Below are positions 8,619-16,487 of a stretch of DNA of 19,033 nt, one piece after another; position 1 is the stretch's first letter, and every line of letters starts with the position of its first letter. The stretch is from a virus (Duplodnaviria > Heunggongvirae > Uroviricota > Caudoviricetes): the IMG/VR virus record IMGVR_UViG_2802429219_000005. One strand, written 5' to 3'. The notes beneath the pieces are model-generated. The model had not been told where the DNA came from. It did not search any database and worked only from the letters and a program-made list of their open reading frames with translations. Both the position numbers and the translations under genes were made by a program.

Positions 8619-9302
8619 ATGGCGCGGGCATCACGCATCCGGCAAAATCTGTTGTTTGATATCGACGTCGAAGAATTGCGGGATATTGCGGCGCTGGCTG
8701 GCGCAACGCAGCACCAGTTTCGTCTGGCCTATTCCCGCGCACTGAAGCGAACGGCATCAAAAATGCGCATGAAGGCGCTTGCGGAACTGAAAACCGGCCT
8801 GGCTCCCCGCAAAATGGACATGCTGCGCAGGCGTCTTTTTTTCACTCGCATTACCCGGGGTAATGCAATGGATGAAGCCCGTTTCTGGTTTGGTCTTAAT
8901 GCGATCAAGATAAAGGATCTACGCGGACGCATTCGTGGACGACGTGTTCGTCATCATGATCTCCGTGACCCGGTAACCGGGCGGTTTATCAAAGAGAATC
9001 GTGTCAGACGGCGTCGCCGCAAAGCCAGCGATCCGGTTTTTGAACCCAACGGTTCGTTTTTATCTCCCACCGCATATGAAAACGGGCTGGTGATACGTAG
9101 CCGCAAAGAGAACCGACGAACAATCATCATCAAAAATCCGGAAACCGGGCGCGTCCGGGAGGCTGAAGCCGGTATTTATGCCCGTACAATGGATTATGTT
9201 GAAGATGTGGCTTTTGCAGAATGTCTGGAAATTTTTATGAAAGAGTTCGAATCGGACATCCGGCGACGTGCGAAGTACGGCATTACCGTGACCCCCCGAT
9301 AA
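8619..9302 (+). CDS. arginine-rich structural protein, putative tail completion protein (lambda gpZ-like by position and composition)
   Basis: 227 aa, SD AAGGAG at 8605-8610. Very basic with an RRRRRK run (KENRVRRRRRKASDP) reminiscent of the RRRRRKK stretch in lambda Z as recalled. Sits directly after FII, where Z lies in lambda. Function is positional/compositional inference only. Confidence 0.5.
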   Translation: MARASRIRQNLLFDIDVEELRDIAALAGATQHQFRLAYSRALKRTASKMRMKALAELKTGLAPRKMDMLRRRLFFTRITRGNAMDEARFWFGLNAIKIKDLRGRIRGRRVRHHDLRDPVTGRFIKENRVRRRRRKASDPVFEPNGSFLSPTAYENGLVIRSRKENRRTIIIKNPETGRVREAEAGIYARTMDYVEDVAFAECLEIFMKEFESDIRRRAKYGITVTPR

Positions 9303-9318
9303 AAAACGTGAGGACACA

Positions 9319-9882
9319 ATGGCTGAACCCTTATGCATGGCATCCTGGCACGCTGCTGTGCTGGGTGCCCTGAAAGAACTTAAATGGATCAGGGATGCGG
9401 ATACCTACCCTGAACGGGTTACGCAACTGGTCACTCCGGCGGTGTTTCTGGCGGTCGATGGCTGGGATGCGAAAAACAATGCAGACGGACAGATGACGGT
9501 GGTGTTGTCTGCTGCGCTGTGGGTGCTGGTTGATCGTGCCGGTGAGCCGGAGAACGAAAAAAAGGAAGTGGCTGCAAAGCCGGATATTTTTATCCGTTCG
9601 GCAGCCGCCGATCTGACGCACTGGCTCGACGGACAGACGTTCGGGCTGGCAAATGTGGAGCCTGCCATTTTTATATCAGCGGACGCAGATGAAACCGATC
9701 CGCGCCTGGATGATTATCTGGTCTGGCAGATTTCATTTAACCAGACGGTGACGTTTGGTATGGATCTCTTTGCCACGGATAACCTGCCGCTACAGCGGGC
9801 CTGGCTGGGTGTTGCACCGGAGATCGGGCGACAGCATGTGGATGATTACCGGCTGATTTTTGAGAGAAAGCCACGTGAATGA
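9319..9882 (+). CDS. putative tail terminator protein (lambda gpU-like)
   Basis: 187 aa, SD GAGGA at 9308-9312. N-terminal motifs HAAVLGAL and PAVFLAVDG, 28 residues apart, parallel AAVLDAL and PAVAVYLTG (29 apart) in recalled lambda U. Stop overlaps the start of the spike gene (GTGAATGA). Moderate confidence in the family assignment. Confidence 0.55.
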   Translation: MAEPLCMASWHAAVLGALKELKWIRDADTYPERVTQLVTPAVFLAVDGWDAKNNADGQMTVVLSAALWVLVDRAGEPENEKKEVAAKPDIFIRSAAADLTHWLDGQTFGLANVEPAIFISADADETDPRLDDYLVWQISFNQTVTFGMDLFATDNLPLQRAWLGVAPEIGRQHVDDYRLIFERKPRE

Positions 9883-10495
9883 GGTTCTGGGGGATTTACA
9901 GCGCCGCCTGGCAAATATGGTCCGGCGCGGGGTGATCCACTCGGTGCGGCTGGACGGTGGTTTTCCGGAATGCCGCGTGGATCTGGGGGATATTGTGACC
10001 ACCTGGCTGCCATTATGTCAGGGGTTTGCCGGAAAAAACAGGGCAGATTTTGAGCCGTTTGCTGTGGGTGATGCGGTTACGGTGCTGTCAGAGGCCGGGG
10101 AGCTGAATAACGGTCGTGTTTTTCCCGGCTGGAATACCGGTGAGGCACCGGCTCCGCAGGGCAGCGACAGTGAGCACATCACCCGTTACGGAGATGGTAC
10201 TGAAATTTGCTATAACCGGGAGACGCACTCACTGACCATTATTCTGGCGGAAGGGGGCACCTATGCCATTACCGGGAATGGTGTACTGGACGGAAACGTC
10301 ATGATTTCAGAAAACCTGATCGTGAACGGACGCACGATGGTTGAAGGTGAAGTGGTGGTGAAAAGTGATTTTTATGCAAAAGGAGAGGTGACGGATAAAT
10401 CCGGCAGTATGAGCCGGATCCGGGAAACGTTTAATGGACACGACCATCCCGGAGACAGTGGGGGAACCACGAAAGTACCGAATCAGAAAATGTGA
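9875..10495 (+). CDS. baseplate central spike / assembly protein, P2 gpV-like (Mu gp45-like)
   Basis: About 206 aa from GTG 9875. N-terminus (M)NEVLGDLQRRLANMVRRGVIHSV and C-terminal GHDHPGDSGGTT resemble recalled P2 gpV (LARALRNMIRTGII...HxHPGDSGGTT tip motif). The ORF track uses an upstream TTG at 9860. Confidence 0.85.
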   Translation: MNEVLGDLQRRLANMVRRGVIHSVRLDGGFPECRVDLGDIVTTWLPLCQGFAGKNRADFEPFAVGDAVTVLSEAGELNNGRVFPGWNTGEAPAPQGSDSEHITRYGDGTEICYNRETHSLTIILAEGGTYAITGNGVLDGNVMISENLIVNGRTMVEGEVVVKSDFYAKGEVTDKSGSMSRIRETFNGHDHPGDSGGTTKVPNQKM

Positions 10496-10516
10496 CCTGC
10501 TGCGGCAGGTTTTTTT
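10495..10516 (+). terminator. rho-independent terminator-like hairpin between spike gene and sheath gene
   Basis: ACCTGC (10495-10500), loop TGCG, GCAGGT (10505-10510), followed by a 7-T run ending at 10516. The stem begins at the last base of the V stop codon. Confidence 0.6.
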
Positions 10517-10533
10517 ATGTCCGGAGAATGCAA

Positions 10534-12003
10534 ATGGGGCAATTACATGGTGTGGAAACCATCGAGCTGACAGCAGGCACGGTGGCGGTAACCACAATAG
10601 AGACAGCCATTATTGGGGTGGTGGGAACCGCGCCGCAGGCTGCCGGGGCTGTGGCAGCAACACTGACAGCGGGAACGCCGTTGCTGGGTAACGAGCTGAC
10701 CTTTACGGCAAAAGCGGCGGGGCGGAGCGGAAATACCATTACCGTTATTGCTGAACAGGCTTTACAGGCAGCAAAAGAAAAAAGTGCGGGTGCGGTCCCC
10801 ACGTCAGCAAAATGGGAAAACGGAAGCCTGTTGATTTGGCTTGGATGCAGTGAAGAGGGGGCCGGTAATGCCACCGTCAGCGATGTTGTGACGGCAGTGA
10901 ATGGCGTGGCTGGGGTCGGGGTGAGTGCCACCGGCAGCGGTGACGGTATTGTGTCGCCGTTTTCCGGCACACTGAGTGGCGGTGAAGATGAACCGTTTCC
11001 GCTGAACACGCCAGTGGCGATGGCGGGAACAACGGCGCTTTCACGTCTGGGGCTCACCGGAACACTGAAGCAGGCGCTGACGGAGATTAACGACCAGCGT
11101 AACGCGCTGTCGGTGATCGTCCGGGTGGAAGAAAAAACGAAGCCGGAAGAGCAGCGTGCTGCCATTCTTGCGGGGATCAGCATGCTGTCATCGGCAAAAT
11201 CCGTCACCACGTATCAGCCACGTATTGTGATTGCACCAGGATTCAGTGAAGACGATGCGGTAGGTAAGGCACTGGAAACTGTGGCCGGAAAACTGCGGGC
11301 AGTGGCGTACGTGGATTGTGCTGCGGGCGCGACACTGCAGGAAGTGGTGCAGCGTCGTCAGTCTTACGGTGCCCGGACTGAACTACTGCGCCCGCGTGTG
11401 CAGGTCAGTAATGCAGAGGGGCAACTGGTGTATCGCCCGTATTCGGCGTTTGCTGCCGGACTGCGTGCCCGTATTGACTATGAAAAAGGGTGGTGGTGGA
11501 GCAAATCAAACCAGGAGGTTTACAACATCCTCGGTGTTGAGCAGGTGGATGAATTTATCCTCGGTGAGCGTAACTGCGATGCCAACCTGCTTAATATGCA
11601 GAATGTCTCCACCCTGATCCGCCGCGCCGGATTTAAACACTGGGGAAACCGGCTGTGCTCGTCCCATCCTCAGTGGCATTTCGAGTCCGTCCGCCGTACT
11701 GCGGATGTGATTGAAGACAGTATTCAGGAAGCGATGCTGGCATATGTTGACCGCCCGCTTGATCGTCAGAATGCGGACGACATCATTGGCACCATTAATG
11801 CGTATATGCGCCGTCTGGTGGCAGAAGGTGCCATCTTCGGGGGGCGGGCATGGCTGGATCCGGAACTGAATACCGCCGAAACGCTGGCAGCCGGTGAACT
11901 GTACATCAACTATGACTTCGGTCCCAAATCGCCGACTGAACTTATCAGCATGCGGGTGAGCGTCAACAACGAATACGGCATTAAGGAGATGAAGGCAACA
12001 TGA
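10534..12003 (+). CDS. contractile tail sheath protein (P2 FI / Mu L-like) with an extra N-proximal Ala/Gly/Thr-rich region
   Basis: About 489 aa from ATG 10534 (GGAG at 10523-10526). LHGVETIEL near the N-terminus and NVSTLIRRAGFKHWGNR, AGELYINYDFGP in the C-terminal half are typical of P2-type sheath proteins. Roughly 100 aa longer than P2 FI as recalled. Confidence 0.88.
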   Translation: MGQLHGVETIELTAGTVAVTTIETAIIGVVGTAPQAAGAVAATLTAGTPLLGNELTFTAKAAGRSGNTITVIAEQALQAAKEKSAGAVPTSAKWENGSLLIWLGCSEEGAGNATVSDVVTAVNGVAGVGVSATGSGDGIVSPFSGTLSGGEDEPFPLNTPVAMAGTTALSRLGLTGTLKQALTEINDQRNALSVIVRVEEKTKPEEQRAAILAGISMLSSAKSVTTYQPRIVIAPGFSEDDAVGKALETVAGKLRAVAYVDCAAGATLQEVVQRRQSYGARTELLRPRVQVSNAEGQLVYRPYSAFAAGLRARIDYEKGWWWSKSNQEVYNILGVEQVDEFILGERNCDANLLNMQNVSTLIRRAGFKHWGNRLCSSHPQWHFESVRRTADVIEDSIQEAMLAYVDRPLDRQNADDIIGTINAYMRRLVAEGAIFGGRAWLDPELNTAETLAAGELYINYDFGPKSPTELISMRVSVNNEYGIKEMKAT

Positions 12004-12506
12004 GCAGTAAAAACACATTACGGGCCTGGACTTTTTTCCGCCAGGGGATCCGTATTCAGGGAGCGCATGAGTTCACGCCACCCACGCTGTCCATAACCAC
12101 CACCGATTTACGCACCGGGGCACAGGATGCGCCCACGCCGGTTGACGACGGCATGGAGGCGCTGACCTGCCAGATTAAATTCTATGGTCTGGATACAGAC
12201 ATGCTGTCCAGTCTCGGATTTGTCAGTGGCAGCCGCTCCCGCTTCACGGCCTATCAGGGCTATCTGGCAAACGGCACCGCGCTGGGGACCACCGAAGAAA
12301 TCGAAGGTTTTGTGAAAACGGTGACGCCGGATGCGCGCGGAAACAGCGGGCTGTCAGAAAATGCGGTGACAGTGGAAATCGCGGTGAATTATTACCGTCA
12401 GACGCTGGAGGGGATCGAACTCATTATGATTGATACCGAGCGTTTTGAGCGTCGGATCAACGGCGTGAATGTTCTCGCCGGCCTGTCGGCAAAAGTGCGT
12501 CTCTGA
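12000..12506 (+). CDS. tail tube protein (P2 FII / Mu M-like)
   Basis: 168 aa. Start overlaps the sheath stop (ATGA). Size and position immediately after the sheath gene are canonical for contractile-tail tube proteins; assignment is by synteny, with no specific motif match recalled. Confidence 0.8.
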   Translation: MSSKNTLRAWTFFRQGIRIQGAHEFTPPTLSITTTDLRTGAQDAPTPVDDGMEALTCQIKFYGLDTDMLSSLGFVSGSRSRFTAYQGYLANGTALGTTEEIEGFVKTVTPDARGNSGLSENAVTVEIAVNYYRQTLEGIELIMIDTERFERRINGVNVLAGLSAKVRL

Positions 12507-12522
12507 GCACTGATTAACGCAT

Positions 12523-12546
12523 AACGGCCTGCGGGCCGTTTTTTTT
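12523..12546 (+). terminator. rho-independent terminator-like hairpin after the tube gene
   Basis: AACGGCC (12523-12529), loop TGCG, GGCCGTT (12534-12540), followed by TTTTTT (12541-12546). Immediately precedes the chaperone SD AAGGAG. Confidence 0.65.
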
Positions 12547-12558
12547 AAGGAGCAGATT

Positions 12559-12858
12559 ATGAATATTCCGGGTGAAACCCGCACCATCACACTGTACACA
12601 CCTGTCACTCTGGGGGGCGGGGCTGTGCTGGAACACATCACCATGCGCGAACCGCTGGTGCGCGATCGCATTGCCTTCACCAAAGACCGGGGAACAGAGG
12701 AGGAAAAAGAGGCGCGTATGATTGCGCAGCTTTGTAATCTGAGTGAGCAGGATATCTGGCTGCTGACCGCAGCGGATTATGCCCAGCTGACGGATGCCTT
12801 TAATGTTTTTATGCTGCCACCCGGGAAGCGACCGAAACCGAAATCTTCAGAGGGTTAA
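12559..12858 (+). CDS. tail assembly chaperone (P2 gpE / lambda gpG analogue)
   Basis: 99 aa, SD AAGGAG upstream of ATG 12559. Small acidic protein between the tube and tape measure genes, the conserved position of frameshifting tail chaperones. Confidence 0.75.
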   Translation: MNIPGETRTITLYTPVTLGGGAVLEHITMREPLVRDRIAFTKDRGTEEEKEARMIAQLCNLSEQDIWLLTAADYAQLTDAFNVFMLPPGKRPKPKSSEG

Positions 12859-12986
12859 GGTTTCTCGGGCGGCGGCTGCATTTTCCTCTTTCCGATTATC
12901 TGTCCATGCCGTTCAGTGTGTTTACGGCATTTTTACTGGATGAAGTGGAGGCGGTAAAACGTGGGAAGCGTAAGTCAGAATCTTAA
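12559..12986 (+). CDS. putative -1 frameshift extended chaperone (P2 E+E' / lambda GT analogue); slip predicted at the T-run 12806-12810
   Basis: The -1 frame opens at 12804 (after TAA 12801-12803) and runs to TAA 12984-12986, overlapping the tape measure start. It reads CFYAATREATETEIFRGLRFLGRRLHFPLSDYLSMPFSVFTAFLLDEVEAVKRGKRKSES. Predicted fusion is about 142 aa, the size of P2 E+E' as recalled. No canonical X_XXY_YYZ heptamer, so only single-tRNA slippage on UUU is possible. Confidence 0.45.
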
Positions 12987-14610
12987 GGCCACCGTGTCGT
13001 TCGGGGGCAAACTGGACAGTTCGTGGCGTCGTTCGGCGACGGATCTGCGAAAAAATCTGCAGGATGTGGAGCAGCAGGCTGCGCGTTTGCGTAAGGAGCA
13101 GGCAGAGCTGGCAGCAGAAATGAAGCGGGCGGCGCTGGCAGGGAAACGTTTTAAGTCGATGGAGGATGAATACGCCCGGCTCACTGCTGAAATTAAGAAA
13201 GCGGATGCGGCCCAGAAAAAACTGAACCGGAGCCTTGAGCGTCGCGATCGGCTCGGACGTTTTATGGGGAAGGGAAAAAGTCTGCTTGCCGGAACCGGCA
13301 AATTTGCCTGGAATGCCGGTCTGGCGATGGGGGGCGGTGCCGTGACCACGGCACTTGGTGCGCTGATTGCTCCGGCAGCCATGAATGCGCAGACGGCTGA
13401 AACGGCGGGTAAAGCGACTGCGTATGGCGTGGATACCCGTACGTACATGAATTGGGACGCCCTGGCAAAACAGTACGATATGACCGGCGATAATATCGGA
13501 GATCTGTTTGAGGAATACCTGCATAAGGCCGGGGAATATAAACAAAATGGCAAGCAGAGTTCGCTTTCTGACGCCTTTGAAACGCTGGGATTTAAGGAGG
13601 GCGATCTTGCCGGACTGAGTGATTCGTCGCAGTTCGAAAAAATTATCGACAGGGCGCTGTCTCTGGAAGATGAATCAAAGGCATCTTTTGCGCTGGATGC
13701 ATTGTTTGGTGGTGAAGCCAGTAAACTGCTGATGCTGATCAAACGTTCAGGAAAAAGTTTTCAGGAACTGCTGGCTGAGCAGGATAAATATAATCTGGTG
13801 ACAAAAGAGGGGGTGGCTGGCGCACTTGCCGGAAACAAGGCTGTTTCTGATTTGCAGCAGGTTTTTTCTTCTGCGGTTGCAGAAATTTCCGGACAACTGG
13901 GCGCAGAGCTGGCTCCCGCTATACAACAGACAGCGGGTGACCTGGCAGAGTGGTTTAAAGGTGGAGGCATTAAAAAGGTTGTGTCTTTTCTGAGGGACAC
14001 CCTGTATCCGGCAGCCCTGAAGTTTGGCGAAGGCGTCATTTTTGTCGGAAAAATCATTTTTGCAGCAGCCAAAAAGCTCTCCTGGTTGTTACCGGATGAA
14101 CAGGGCGATCAGAAGCAGATTCTGGAGTATGTCGGGCGTGGTGACATGACCGCTGCCCGGACAGTGGCCCGGAACAGCGGGCAGGATGCGTGGCTTGACG
14201 GGCAACTGAAAAATAATCCCGATTTTGAAAAGAGTGTCCGTGAAAAATACAACGCCGCGAAGGGCTTTATGGGCATTGTGGATACGGATGCGTTTCATGA
14301 ATCGGTGAACAGTTACCTCACGCCGGAAAAAACGTTCGATTTTTCGCTGCCGGCAGGATCCGCCGGAAAACAGGATGATCCTTTTGCCAGTGCGGGGGCA
14401 TGGCAGGCTGCCGTGCAGGCTATTCCTGTTGAGGGCGGACAGTCCGGCGCACAGCTGAATGACAACAGTGTGAAGAATTATAACTTCAACATTGTTGCGC
14501 AGCCCGGACAGAGCGAACAGGGTATTGCGGACGCCATTGCCGGAATGACGAAAAACAACCCGGCCTTCAGTGGTAATAATGCGTTGTGGGATGGAGGAAG
14601 TGTCTGGTGA
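12961..14610 (+). CDS. tail tape measure protein
   Basis: 549 aa, GTG start with GGAGG at 12946-12950. Coiled-coil-like N-terminus (LRKNLQDVEQQAARLRKEQAELAAEMKRAAL), Gly/Ala-rich central region, and position after the chaperone. Confidence 0.85.
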   Translation: MGSVSQNLKATVSFGGKLDSSWRRSATDLRKNLQDVEQQAARLRKEQAELAAEMKRAALAGKRFKSMEDEYARLTAEIKKADAAQKKLNRSLERRDRLGRFMGKGKSLLAGTGKFAWNAGLAMGGGAVTTALGALIAPAAMNAQTAETAGKATAYGVDTRTYMNWDALAKQYDMTGDNIGDLFEEYLHKAGEYKQNGKQSSLSDAFETLGFKEGDLAGLSDSSQFEKIIDRALSLEDESKASFALDALFGGEASKLLMLIKRSGKSFQELLAEQDKYNLVTKEGVAGALAGNKAVSDLQQVFSSAVAEISGQLGAELAPAIQQTAGDLAEWFKGGGIKKVVSFLRDTLYPAALKFGEGVIFVGKIIFAAAKKLSWLLPDEQGDQKQILEYVGRGDMTAARTVARNSGQDAWLDGQLKNNPDFEKSVREKYNAAKGFMGIVDTDAFHESVNSYLTPEKTFDFSLPAGSAGKQDDPFASAGAWQAAVQAIPVEGGQSGAQLNDNSVKNYNFNIVAQPGQSEQGIADAIAGMTKNNPAFSGNNALWDGGSVW

Positions 14611-15284: not shown

Positions 15285-16487
15285 ATGATGACGTCATTAT
15301 TCGAACAGCTGCAGGCAATAAATGCTGCGTATCAGGAGTCCCTGAACAGTGAGGAAAAACAGGAAACCATTGCCACGACCGTCCGGGAATTCTGCCCGGC
15401 GTATCGGGTGACAGCTGAAGGGCGGGATATCACGCGGGTGCTGGCCCGTTATCTTGTGGATATCACTCTGACGGATTACGGCGGAGCCACCGCCAAATCT
15501 GATGAACTGAAAATCACGCTGCTTTCTGAAACACTGCCCCTGCCGACAAAGGGGGCGCGTCTGCGGGTGGCGATGGGGTTTAACGGTAATCTGGTGGACA
15601 AGGGCTGGTTTGTGGTGTGCGGCGTGAGCAGCAGCGGCCCGCCGCGGCGGATCGAGATTTATGCTACCGCTGCCCCCATGAATGCGGAAAAGCAGTCCGG
15701 TGATGTGCTGAATCAGAAAACACGCAGCTGGGATAATCTCACGCTGGGTGATCTGGTGAAAACTGTTGCCACGGAAAACGGACTGAAGGCCCGGGTGGCG
15801 GAGAAGCTGGCGGGGATCCGCATTACCCATGTGGATCAGGTGGCAGAATCGGATGCCAGCCTGTTGTCCCGCCTTGCCCGGACGTATAACGCCGTCAGTA
15901 AACCTGCCGGAGGTTACTGGTTGTTTCTGGAGCAGGGTGCCGGAACCACCGTATCGGGCGCGCCCCTGAAGACCGTGACGCTGACACCTTCCGTGGTGTC
16001 ATCCTGGAATTATCAGGAAGGTGAACGGGGGAGCTCTGGCGGCGGTGGAGATAAAAAAAAGAAGAAAGAAAAAATCACGGTTCGTTATTTTGACAAGGCT
16101 GACGGGCGAACCAAAACGGCAACCGTGGAGCATGACGGCTCGTCTGTAACCAGTCCGTACACGCAACCGGAAAAGGAAACGGCTGAACAACAGGCAAAAT
16201 CGAAAAAAACACAGGCGCAACGCAACAGCCGGAAAATGACGCTGACAGGGCCGTGCCGTCCTTCATATGTTGCCATGACCGCCGAATCCGGCGTGGTGAC
16301 ATCCGGATTTGGTAAGCGGGAAGATCGCCGCTGGCTCGTGGAATCACTGTTTTTTTCCCTCTCATCTTCAGGCTTTACCTTCACGTTTAATCTGGTGGCT
16401 GAAATCAAAAACGCCAGTAAATCAGACAAAAAATCCGGTGATAAAACAGGGCCGGATTATTTTGGTATCGGATCGGGAAAAAAATAA
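15285..16487 (+). CDS. baseplate hub / late control protein, P2 gpD-like (Mu gp44-like), with an internal Gly/Lys-rich low-complexity insert
   Basis: About 400 aa from ATG 15285 (AAGGGAGG upstream; second ATG at 15288). Size and position after U/X match P2 gpD-type proteins. Contains SSGGGGDKKKKKEK encoded by an A8 tract (16053-16060). Confidence 0.8.
   Translation: MMTSLFEQLQAINAAYQESLNSEEKQETIATTVREFCPAYRVTAEGRDITRVLARYLVDITLTDYGGATAKSDELKITLLSETLPLPTKGARLRVAMGFNGNLVDKGWFVVCGVSSSGPPRRIEIYATAAPMNAEKQSGDVLNQKTRSWDNLTLGDLVKTVATENGLKARVAEKLAGIRITHVDQVAESDASLLSRLARTYNAVSKPAGGYWLFLEQGAGTTVSGAPLKTVTLTPSVVSSWNYQEGERGSSGGGGDKKKKKEKITVRYFDKADGRTKTATVEHDGSSVTSPYTQPEKETAEQQAKSKKTQAQRNSRKMTLTGPCRPSYVAMTAESGVVTSGFGKREDRRWLVESLFFSLSSSGFTFTFNLVAEIKNASKSDKKSGDKTGPDYFGIGSGKK

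Follow-up and report, generated by a model that had tools for sequence, protein, structure and literature searches.

In the 19,033-nt stretch of phage DNA analysed here, hereafter called the window, a tail assembly chaperone gene very probably yields two proteins, the longer one through programmed -1 ribosomal frameshifting as in P2 E/E+E' and lambda G/GT, and the sequence points to a Z_ZZN tetramer, U_UUU, as the place of the shift. Taken by itself the window is weak evidence for such an event, modestly above chance, and it is the conservation in relatives that is decisive. This class of frameshift is already known and the established picture of tail chaperone frameshifting is unchanged; what sets the present case apart is the minimal tetramer slip site, together with a C-terminal extension that lies outside current family libraries.

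The chaperone gene and its second frame

The zero-frame chaperone gene runs from ATG 12559 to TAA 12856-12858 on the plus strand, as do all other features described below, and encodes a gpE-like short product of 99 aa. Residues 9-85 of this product match Pfam PF10109 (Phage_TAC_7), scoring 50.4 bits where the cut-off is 25 (E=2.3e-13); this family holds the chaperones E, 41 and 14, of the P2 gpE and Mu gp41 type. The product also matches phrog_166 'tail protein' (E=9e-25), and in E. coli genomes it is labelled by PGAP as 'phage tail assembly protein'. The gene order is likewise that of a tail chaperone, in which the upstream neighbour is the tail tube gene at 12000-12506 (PF04985 Phage_tube, E=1.4e-19) and the downstream neighbour is a long ORF at 12961-14610, followed by gpU-like (PF06995) and gpD-like (PF05954) genes. 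This long ORF encodes 549 aa from a GTG start, placed identically by the ORF list and by PGAP, and its position and weak matches of coiled-coil type mark it as the putative tape measure gene.

The window is a prophage morphogenesis region. Between 653 and 18289 it is a mosaic, in which a lambda-type head module (Nu1, gpA, gpW, a lambda-family portal (B), an S49 protease, gpD, gpE, FI and FII-like) is joined to a P2-type contractile tail module comprising baseplate V, the sheath (10492-12003), tube, chaperone, tape measure, gpU-like, gpD-like, gpW/gp25, gpJ and gpI. The baseplate-V-like gene (9860-10495) lies 5' of the sheath gene and apart from the remaining baseplate genes. The gap from the tube stop (12506) to the chaperone start (12559) contains, at 12523-12546, a terminator-like hairpin (AACGGCC-TGCG-GGCCGTT) with a T8 run behind it, and both the T8 run and the RBS ahead of the chaperone are kept in E. 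coli relatives; attenuation at this hairpin could yield less chaperone and tape measure than sheath and tube. Runs of T7 occur within coding regions, or where these begin, at 2621-2627 (terminase), 8836-8842 (an unassigned 227-aa ORF), 10510-10516 (sheath start) and 16350-16356 (gpD-like).

In the -1 frame, a TAA at 12801-12803 is followed by an ORF that is open from 12804 and ends with TAA at 12984-12986. It overlaps the last 55 nt of the chaperone gene (12804-12858), continues for 128 nt past the zero-frame stop, lacks its own start codon, and stops shortly after the tape measure gene has begun, its last 26 nt being shared with that gene. A TTTTT run occupies 12806-12810, where the zero frame reads AAT GTT TTT ATG. 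The fusion would join M1-F84 (12559-12810) to the 58 codons decoded at 12810-12983, the E'-like extension, giving 84 + 58 = 142 aa with the junction NVF/YAATRE. The initial annotation had read this locus as a chaperone frameshift with a fusion of about 142 aa, and its coordinates for the opening, the overlap, the T5 run and the stop turned out to be exact to the base; the computed length and junction agree, and the reading itself is supported by the PF10109 match, the position between tube and tape measure, the presence of the -1 ORF in all loci collected and the coding signature described below.

A megablast of 12000-13100 against phage genomes gave no match, and relatives were reached by protein search and through E. 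coli genomes, using peptide patterns that left codon choice free. The collection comprises 106 loci, namely 22 from E. coli genomes and from one genome per species (Providencia, Citrobacter, Scandinavium, Enterobacter, Pantoea, Izhakiella, Erwinia, Tatumella, Rouxiella, Rosenbergiella and Serratia), 80 viral contigs, two isolated phages and two further contigs. Of 5426 complete E. coli genomes, 12 contain near-identical DNA, in which PGAP annotates the short product only, and Citrobacter phage Chris1 and Hafnia phage yong2 have the same two-frame arrangement with the extension unannotated. A -1 ORF of 49-58 decoded codons is found in 106 of the 106 loci, and the 104 that were tabulated hold 55 distinct peptides and 59 distinct 132-nt segments. 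The initial annotation had proposed that the downstream frame and the T-run be followed in homologues: the frame is kept throughout, and T_TTT is universal, whereas the full T5 is not, Pantoea stewartii having T4.

The proposed slip site

The site put forward is the tetramer U_UUU at 12807-12810, with the Phe codon TTT (12808-12810) in the A site, a preceding T at 12807, and GTT (12805-12807) in the P site, such that base 12810 would be read twice. The sequence GTTTTTATG is identical in 103 of 104 loci, and T_TTT is the sole conserved slippery element in the overlap. The Val codon at the site is GTT in 58 of 59 distinct sequences, compared to 20% of Val codons in the window's genes. T and C are freely exchanged at the base 5' of GTT, the codon there being AAT or AAC, which indicates that P-site re-pairing, and with it the first position of a heptamer, is not under selection. 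A canonical heptamer X_XXY_YYZ is absent from the overlap, the site being [T/C]_GTT_TTT, of which only T_TTT re-pairs. In P. stewartii the site reads TTC AAT AAT TTT ATG, and the -1 frame opens exactly at T_TT; Serratia rubidaea reads AAC AAT TTT TTG, which is the canonical P2 heptamer T_TTT_TTG and the only canonical heptamer among close relatives. The earlier description of the slip site as non-canonical was thus right, and its focus on the T5 run picked the right place, while the essential element is T_TTT at 12807-12810 and not the whole run.

A heptamer is usual, not obligatory, for the tail-chaperone frameshift class, and tetramers are a recognised alternative. Z_ZZN has been described as the minimal -1 site (Atkins et al. 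review, PMC5009743), and U_UU.U is the third most shift-prone tetramer in E. coli (PMC4066793). Six effective tetramers combined with the IS3 pseudoknot gave from 0.26% to 5.6% frameshifting, whereas tetramers with no stimulator were barely above background in E. coli (0.147% vs 0.112%); such tetramers are used by IS elements (PMC4066793).

Two further observations concern this region. In Escherichia phage vB_EcoM-569R10 (L107, 586-998), a chaperone of 44% identity carries an unannotated -1 ORF that opens at 828, with CTG GTA AAG (G_GTA_AAG) as the candidate site, in which the A-site tetramer is A_AAG and Val again occupies the P site. The zero-frame tail of the short product, MLPP(G/A/E)KRPK (12817-12825 and its homologues), is almost invariant and contains a Pro-Pro-X motif of the EF-P-dependent kind, lying 3-5 codons past the shift site, which is too near to act via a collided trailing ribosome.

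A -1 shift elsewhere in the 55-nt overlap, for instance on A_CCC_GGG (12819-12825) or close to the CGA at 12829, would enter the same downstream frame, as would any shift within 12804-12858, and the overlap is GC-rich and maybe structured. We nevertheless consider such a location very unlikely, since these sites offer no cognate A-site re-pairing and are unconserved, CCC GGG being CCA GAG, CCC GCG and others in homologues, whereas T_TTT alone is universal.

It is highly improbable that the second frame is reached by transcriptional slippage, in which RNA polymerase would add one U at the T-run so that some mRNAs encode the 142 aa in a single frame. The resulting protein would be identical, and slippage is known to occur on homopolymers of T and of A, but efficient slippage needs runs of about 9, and T5C5 gave none detectable unless a GC-rich hairpin lay directly 5' of it (PMC5009743). 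Neither a run of about 7-9 or longer nor a shorter run with a 5' GC-rich hairpin was found at the site: no such hairpin lies 5' of 12806, where the run is T5, and the conserved core in P. stewartii is T4. Moreover, the mixed heptamers of more distant PF10109 chaperones, such as A_AAT_TTT and G_GGT_TTT, suit tRNA re-pairing and not polymerase slippage. The former is found in the phages Mica, Alexa and KA2-1, with the frameshift product annotated in the Mica record, and the latter in Mano, where the product is likewise annotated; P2 has T_TTT_TTG, recorded as a -1 frameshift site, and Wolbachia WO has T_TTT_TTT, with the short and the extended chaperone recorded as separate genes. All of these heptamers are canonical and fall on the Phe codon homologous to that of the window.

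The proposed ribosomal shift at U_UUU has two candidate stimulators. The first is a long imperfect RNA hairpin predicted at 12813-12876, starting 2 nt 3' of the shift site, with an MFE of -33.8 kcal/mol (z=-3.7) that was equalled by 0 of 200 shuffles. Its two arms are the Pro-Pro region (GCUGCC.CCCGGGA) and the extension's Gly-Arg-Arg region (UCUCGGG.GGCGGC), and a similar topology is the MFE fold in most homologues. When the 3' arm was recoded synonymously with the extension peptide kept, 48 of the 58 distinct homologues folded better in their native form (z < -1.64 in 26), and CGG or AGG encodes the leading Arg of G-R-R in 48 of 59 sequences vs 27% in the background. Dinucleotide shuffles over the homologues gave a mean z of -0.74, mostly insignificant; RNAalifold found no consensus structure in 21 diverse sequences (-1.9 kcal/mol); and the named helix lacks covariation, with one compensatory cell and 69% of cells pairing, no more than in column shuffles. 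The spacing of only 2 nt from the motif likewise counts against the hairpin. The hairpin may therefore act as a stimulator that is plausible, though unproven and not universal. The second candidate is a weak Shine-Dalgarno-like GGA at 12792-12794, 12 nt 5' of the shift site, which is found in most loci. Over 80 distinct upstream segments, the anti-SD duplex averages about -3.5 kcal/mol at spacings of 7-12 nt and reaches -4 or stronger in only 6-10%, and a stimulatory role of this GGA would be speculative.

Coding signature of the extension

The extensions share the motif A.E.(T/S)E..(I/L)...(L/I)RFLGRRLHF...(D/E)YL.MPFS.F...L.DE.E. A coding test was carried out on the 69 columns past the zero-frame stop in a gapless alignment of 21 sequences. 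Among differing codon pairs, 51% are synonymous in the -1 frame, compared to 8% in the zero frame and 6% in the +1 frame, and the -1 frame contains no stops, compared to 16 in each of the other two. Third positions of the -1 frame have an entropy of 1.34 bits, compared to 0.79 at first and 0.37 at second positions. The extension is a coding region under purifying selection, and the two-frame arrangement is conserved together with this second-frame signature. No conserved start was found: ATG, GTG or TTG is absent 5' of the LRFLGRRLHF motif in most loci, Tatumella has no start codon within the aligned 132-nt segment, and the first possible -1-frame start in the window is ATG 12906, which lies 3' of the conserved motif. 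Purifying selection on a frame that lacks its own start implies that the extension is reachable only by recoding from the chaperone frame.

It is accordingly extremely improbable that the downstream ORF is an independent small gene with an internal start, whether ATG 12906 or a non-canonical one. In some lineages gene callers do predict pieces of 31-46 aa from internal ATGs, but start positions are unconserved, with none in the aligned Tatumella segment, no SD precedes 12906, and the most conserved part (E..LRFLGRRLHF) lies 5' of this ATG. The chance that the -1 frame is a random or decaying ORF with no product, or that a +1 ORF at 12794-12943 is the real one, is practically negligible: in the window alone 60 or more open codons follow 3.6% of the -1-frame codons in the genes, runs of T5 or longer number 38 in the 19 kb and the +1 frame is likewise open across the chaperone stop (12791-12943), but only the -1 frame shows purifying selection and freedom from stops across genera. 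As the -1 ORF is conserved in relatives, the case for decoding of the -1 frame stands far above chance.

Several candidates were examined and set aside. The +1 ORF at 12794-12943, with 49 codons, an ATG start and a span that crosses the chaperone stop, is unconserved, as judged by stops in homologues and 6% synonymous differences. Chaperone homologues of 123-151 aa, considered as natural fusions, proved to be N-terminal mis-starts or chimeras. In two metagenomic proteins, P0086 and P0080, the chaperone runs on into the extension without a change of frame (…NVFMLPPAK/TKAALRAIRFLG…), which probably reflects indels or assembly errors, although they could be natural fused variants.

The extension matched no family in Pfam, NCBIfam or PHROG. 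Against PF06528 (Phage_P2_GpE), the P2 E' domain, no match was obtained even at E up to 10, while P2 E+E' itself scored 76 bits (E=1.2e-21). When a 17-sequence profile of the extension was compared with P2 E' by hhalign, the only alignment was HFPLSDYLSMPFS (HFPLSDYLSM) on HWPPSELYPMSLT (HWPPSELYPM) at E=0.13, a suggestive short motif and not homology evidence. Among 5.8 billion protein clusters four matches to the extension were found, and an exhaustive profile search of 1.84e9 representative proteins returned 11, consisting of pieces of the same ORF (from internal ATGs or error-containing contigs) plus P0091 and P0093. The latter, a borderline match of 257 aa (E about 1e-3), contains two tandem extension-like repeats, …NEATE.IL.QLRFLA…LGISLSAFQAFL…EEIERGRAEG; it was counted as unrelated, a borderline repeat protein, though its repeats raise the possibility that the extension is a small helical domain of HTH-like type. 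AlphaFold modelling of the extension alone, from a 4-sequence alignment, gave three helices at low confidence (pLDDT 66.7), with no meaningful match to the model in BFVD, and the 58-residue C-terminal domain is probably three-helix. Given that no family matched, PF06528 included, the function proposed for the extension is a matter of positional analogy.

Proposed mechanism and comparison with known systems

We infer the ribosomal nature of the shift, together with its efficiency, its stimulators and the function of the extension. In the proposed mechanism, the majority of ribosomes would read 12559-12858 and produce the 99-aa chaperone, while a minority would slip one base back with tRNA-Phe on the A-site UUU at 12808-12810. 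This tRNA would re-pair perfectly on UUU at 12807-12809, whereas the P-site tRNA-Val (GUU to NGU) would re-pair poorly, keeping at most a wobble pair. The slipped ribosomes would then decode from UAU at 12810-12812 on to UAA at 12984-12986, yielding the 142-aa protein, which would carry the first 84 residues of the chaperone and a new 58-residue C-terminal domain. On the model of lambda gpG/gpGT, binding of the tape measure protein would fall to the N-terminal part that both products share, whereas the extension would bring in the tube (or sheath) subunit once the tape measure is coated with chaperone, and tail assembly would be governed by a long-to-short ratio that is low and fixed. As for its history, it is conceivable, if rather doubtful, that this lineage swapped an ancestral canonical heptamer for a bare U_UUU that became fixed across many genera, with the long downstream hairpin compensating and its 3' arm held in the rare CGG/AGG/GGG codons of the extension at G-R-R; the extension would then be an unclassified, possibly HTH-like, three-helix E'-type domain, missing from family libraries as it was never annotated.

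The 142-aa product is omitted by RefSeq/PGAP and by the GenBank records of Chris1 and yong2. Since it is unannotated and its domain is nearly absent from databases, the tail-assembly proteomes of a widespread group of Enterobacterales prophages are incomplete. Among the relatives, the sites that nature has placed on a single homologous codon (T4, T5, T_TTT_TTG, A_AAT_TTT and G_GGT_TTT) form a series that could serve to gauge the parts of P-site re-pairing and downstream structure in E. coli -1 frameshifting.

Within the known tail-chaperone frameshift class, the case in the window is closest to P2 E/E+E', where the -1 frameshift (FETUD operon) is annotated in the GenBank record and experimentally established. 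In both, the N-terminal part belongs to PF10109, the genes follow in the order tube, chaperone, tape measure, U and D, the shift falls on a homologous Phe UUU, and the -1 ORF runs into the beginning of the tape measure gene before it stops; the products are of 91 and 142 aa in P2 and of 99 and 142 aa in the window. The two differ in that P2 uses a canonical heptamer whose P-site codon is UUU and whose A-site codon is UUG, whereas the window has a tetramer with GUU in the P site and UUU in the A site. Furthermore, P2 E' belongs to PF06528 and the extension of the window does not, and no hairpin has been reported for P2 (PMC3091744), while one is predicted in the window.

The chaperones of Burkholderia phage Mica and of Achromobacter phage Mano, like those of Alexa and KA2-1, resemble that of the window in belonging to PF10109 and in carrying a -1 extension, about 45-60 residues long, and the A-site codon of their slip is the same UUU Phe codon, in the geometry proposed here. 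By contrast, their P-site codons, AAU after A and GGU after G, can re-pair, which GUU after U or C cannot do, and their extension (LASHTGWS...FLWWLEGLP) belongs to another sequence family. The chaperone pair of lambda, gpG/gpGT, is likewise encoded between the major tail and tape-measure genes, and is made at a fixed low ratio of extended to short chaperone, with neither protein present in the virion (PMC5009743). It differs in having no sequence similarity to the window's products and in belonging to a siphovirus with the canonical heptamer G_GGA_AAG, and binding partners are known only for lambda. The tetramer sites of IS1/IS3 (U_UU.Y, A_AA.G) use the same minimal A-site-only motif as the window, and shifting at them depends on flanking stimulators (PMC4066793). 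Their context, however, is transposase fusion, and their stimulators are experimentally defined pseudoknots, hairpins or SD sequences.
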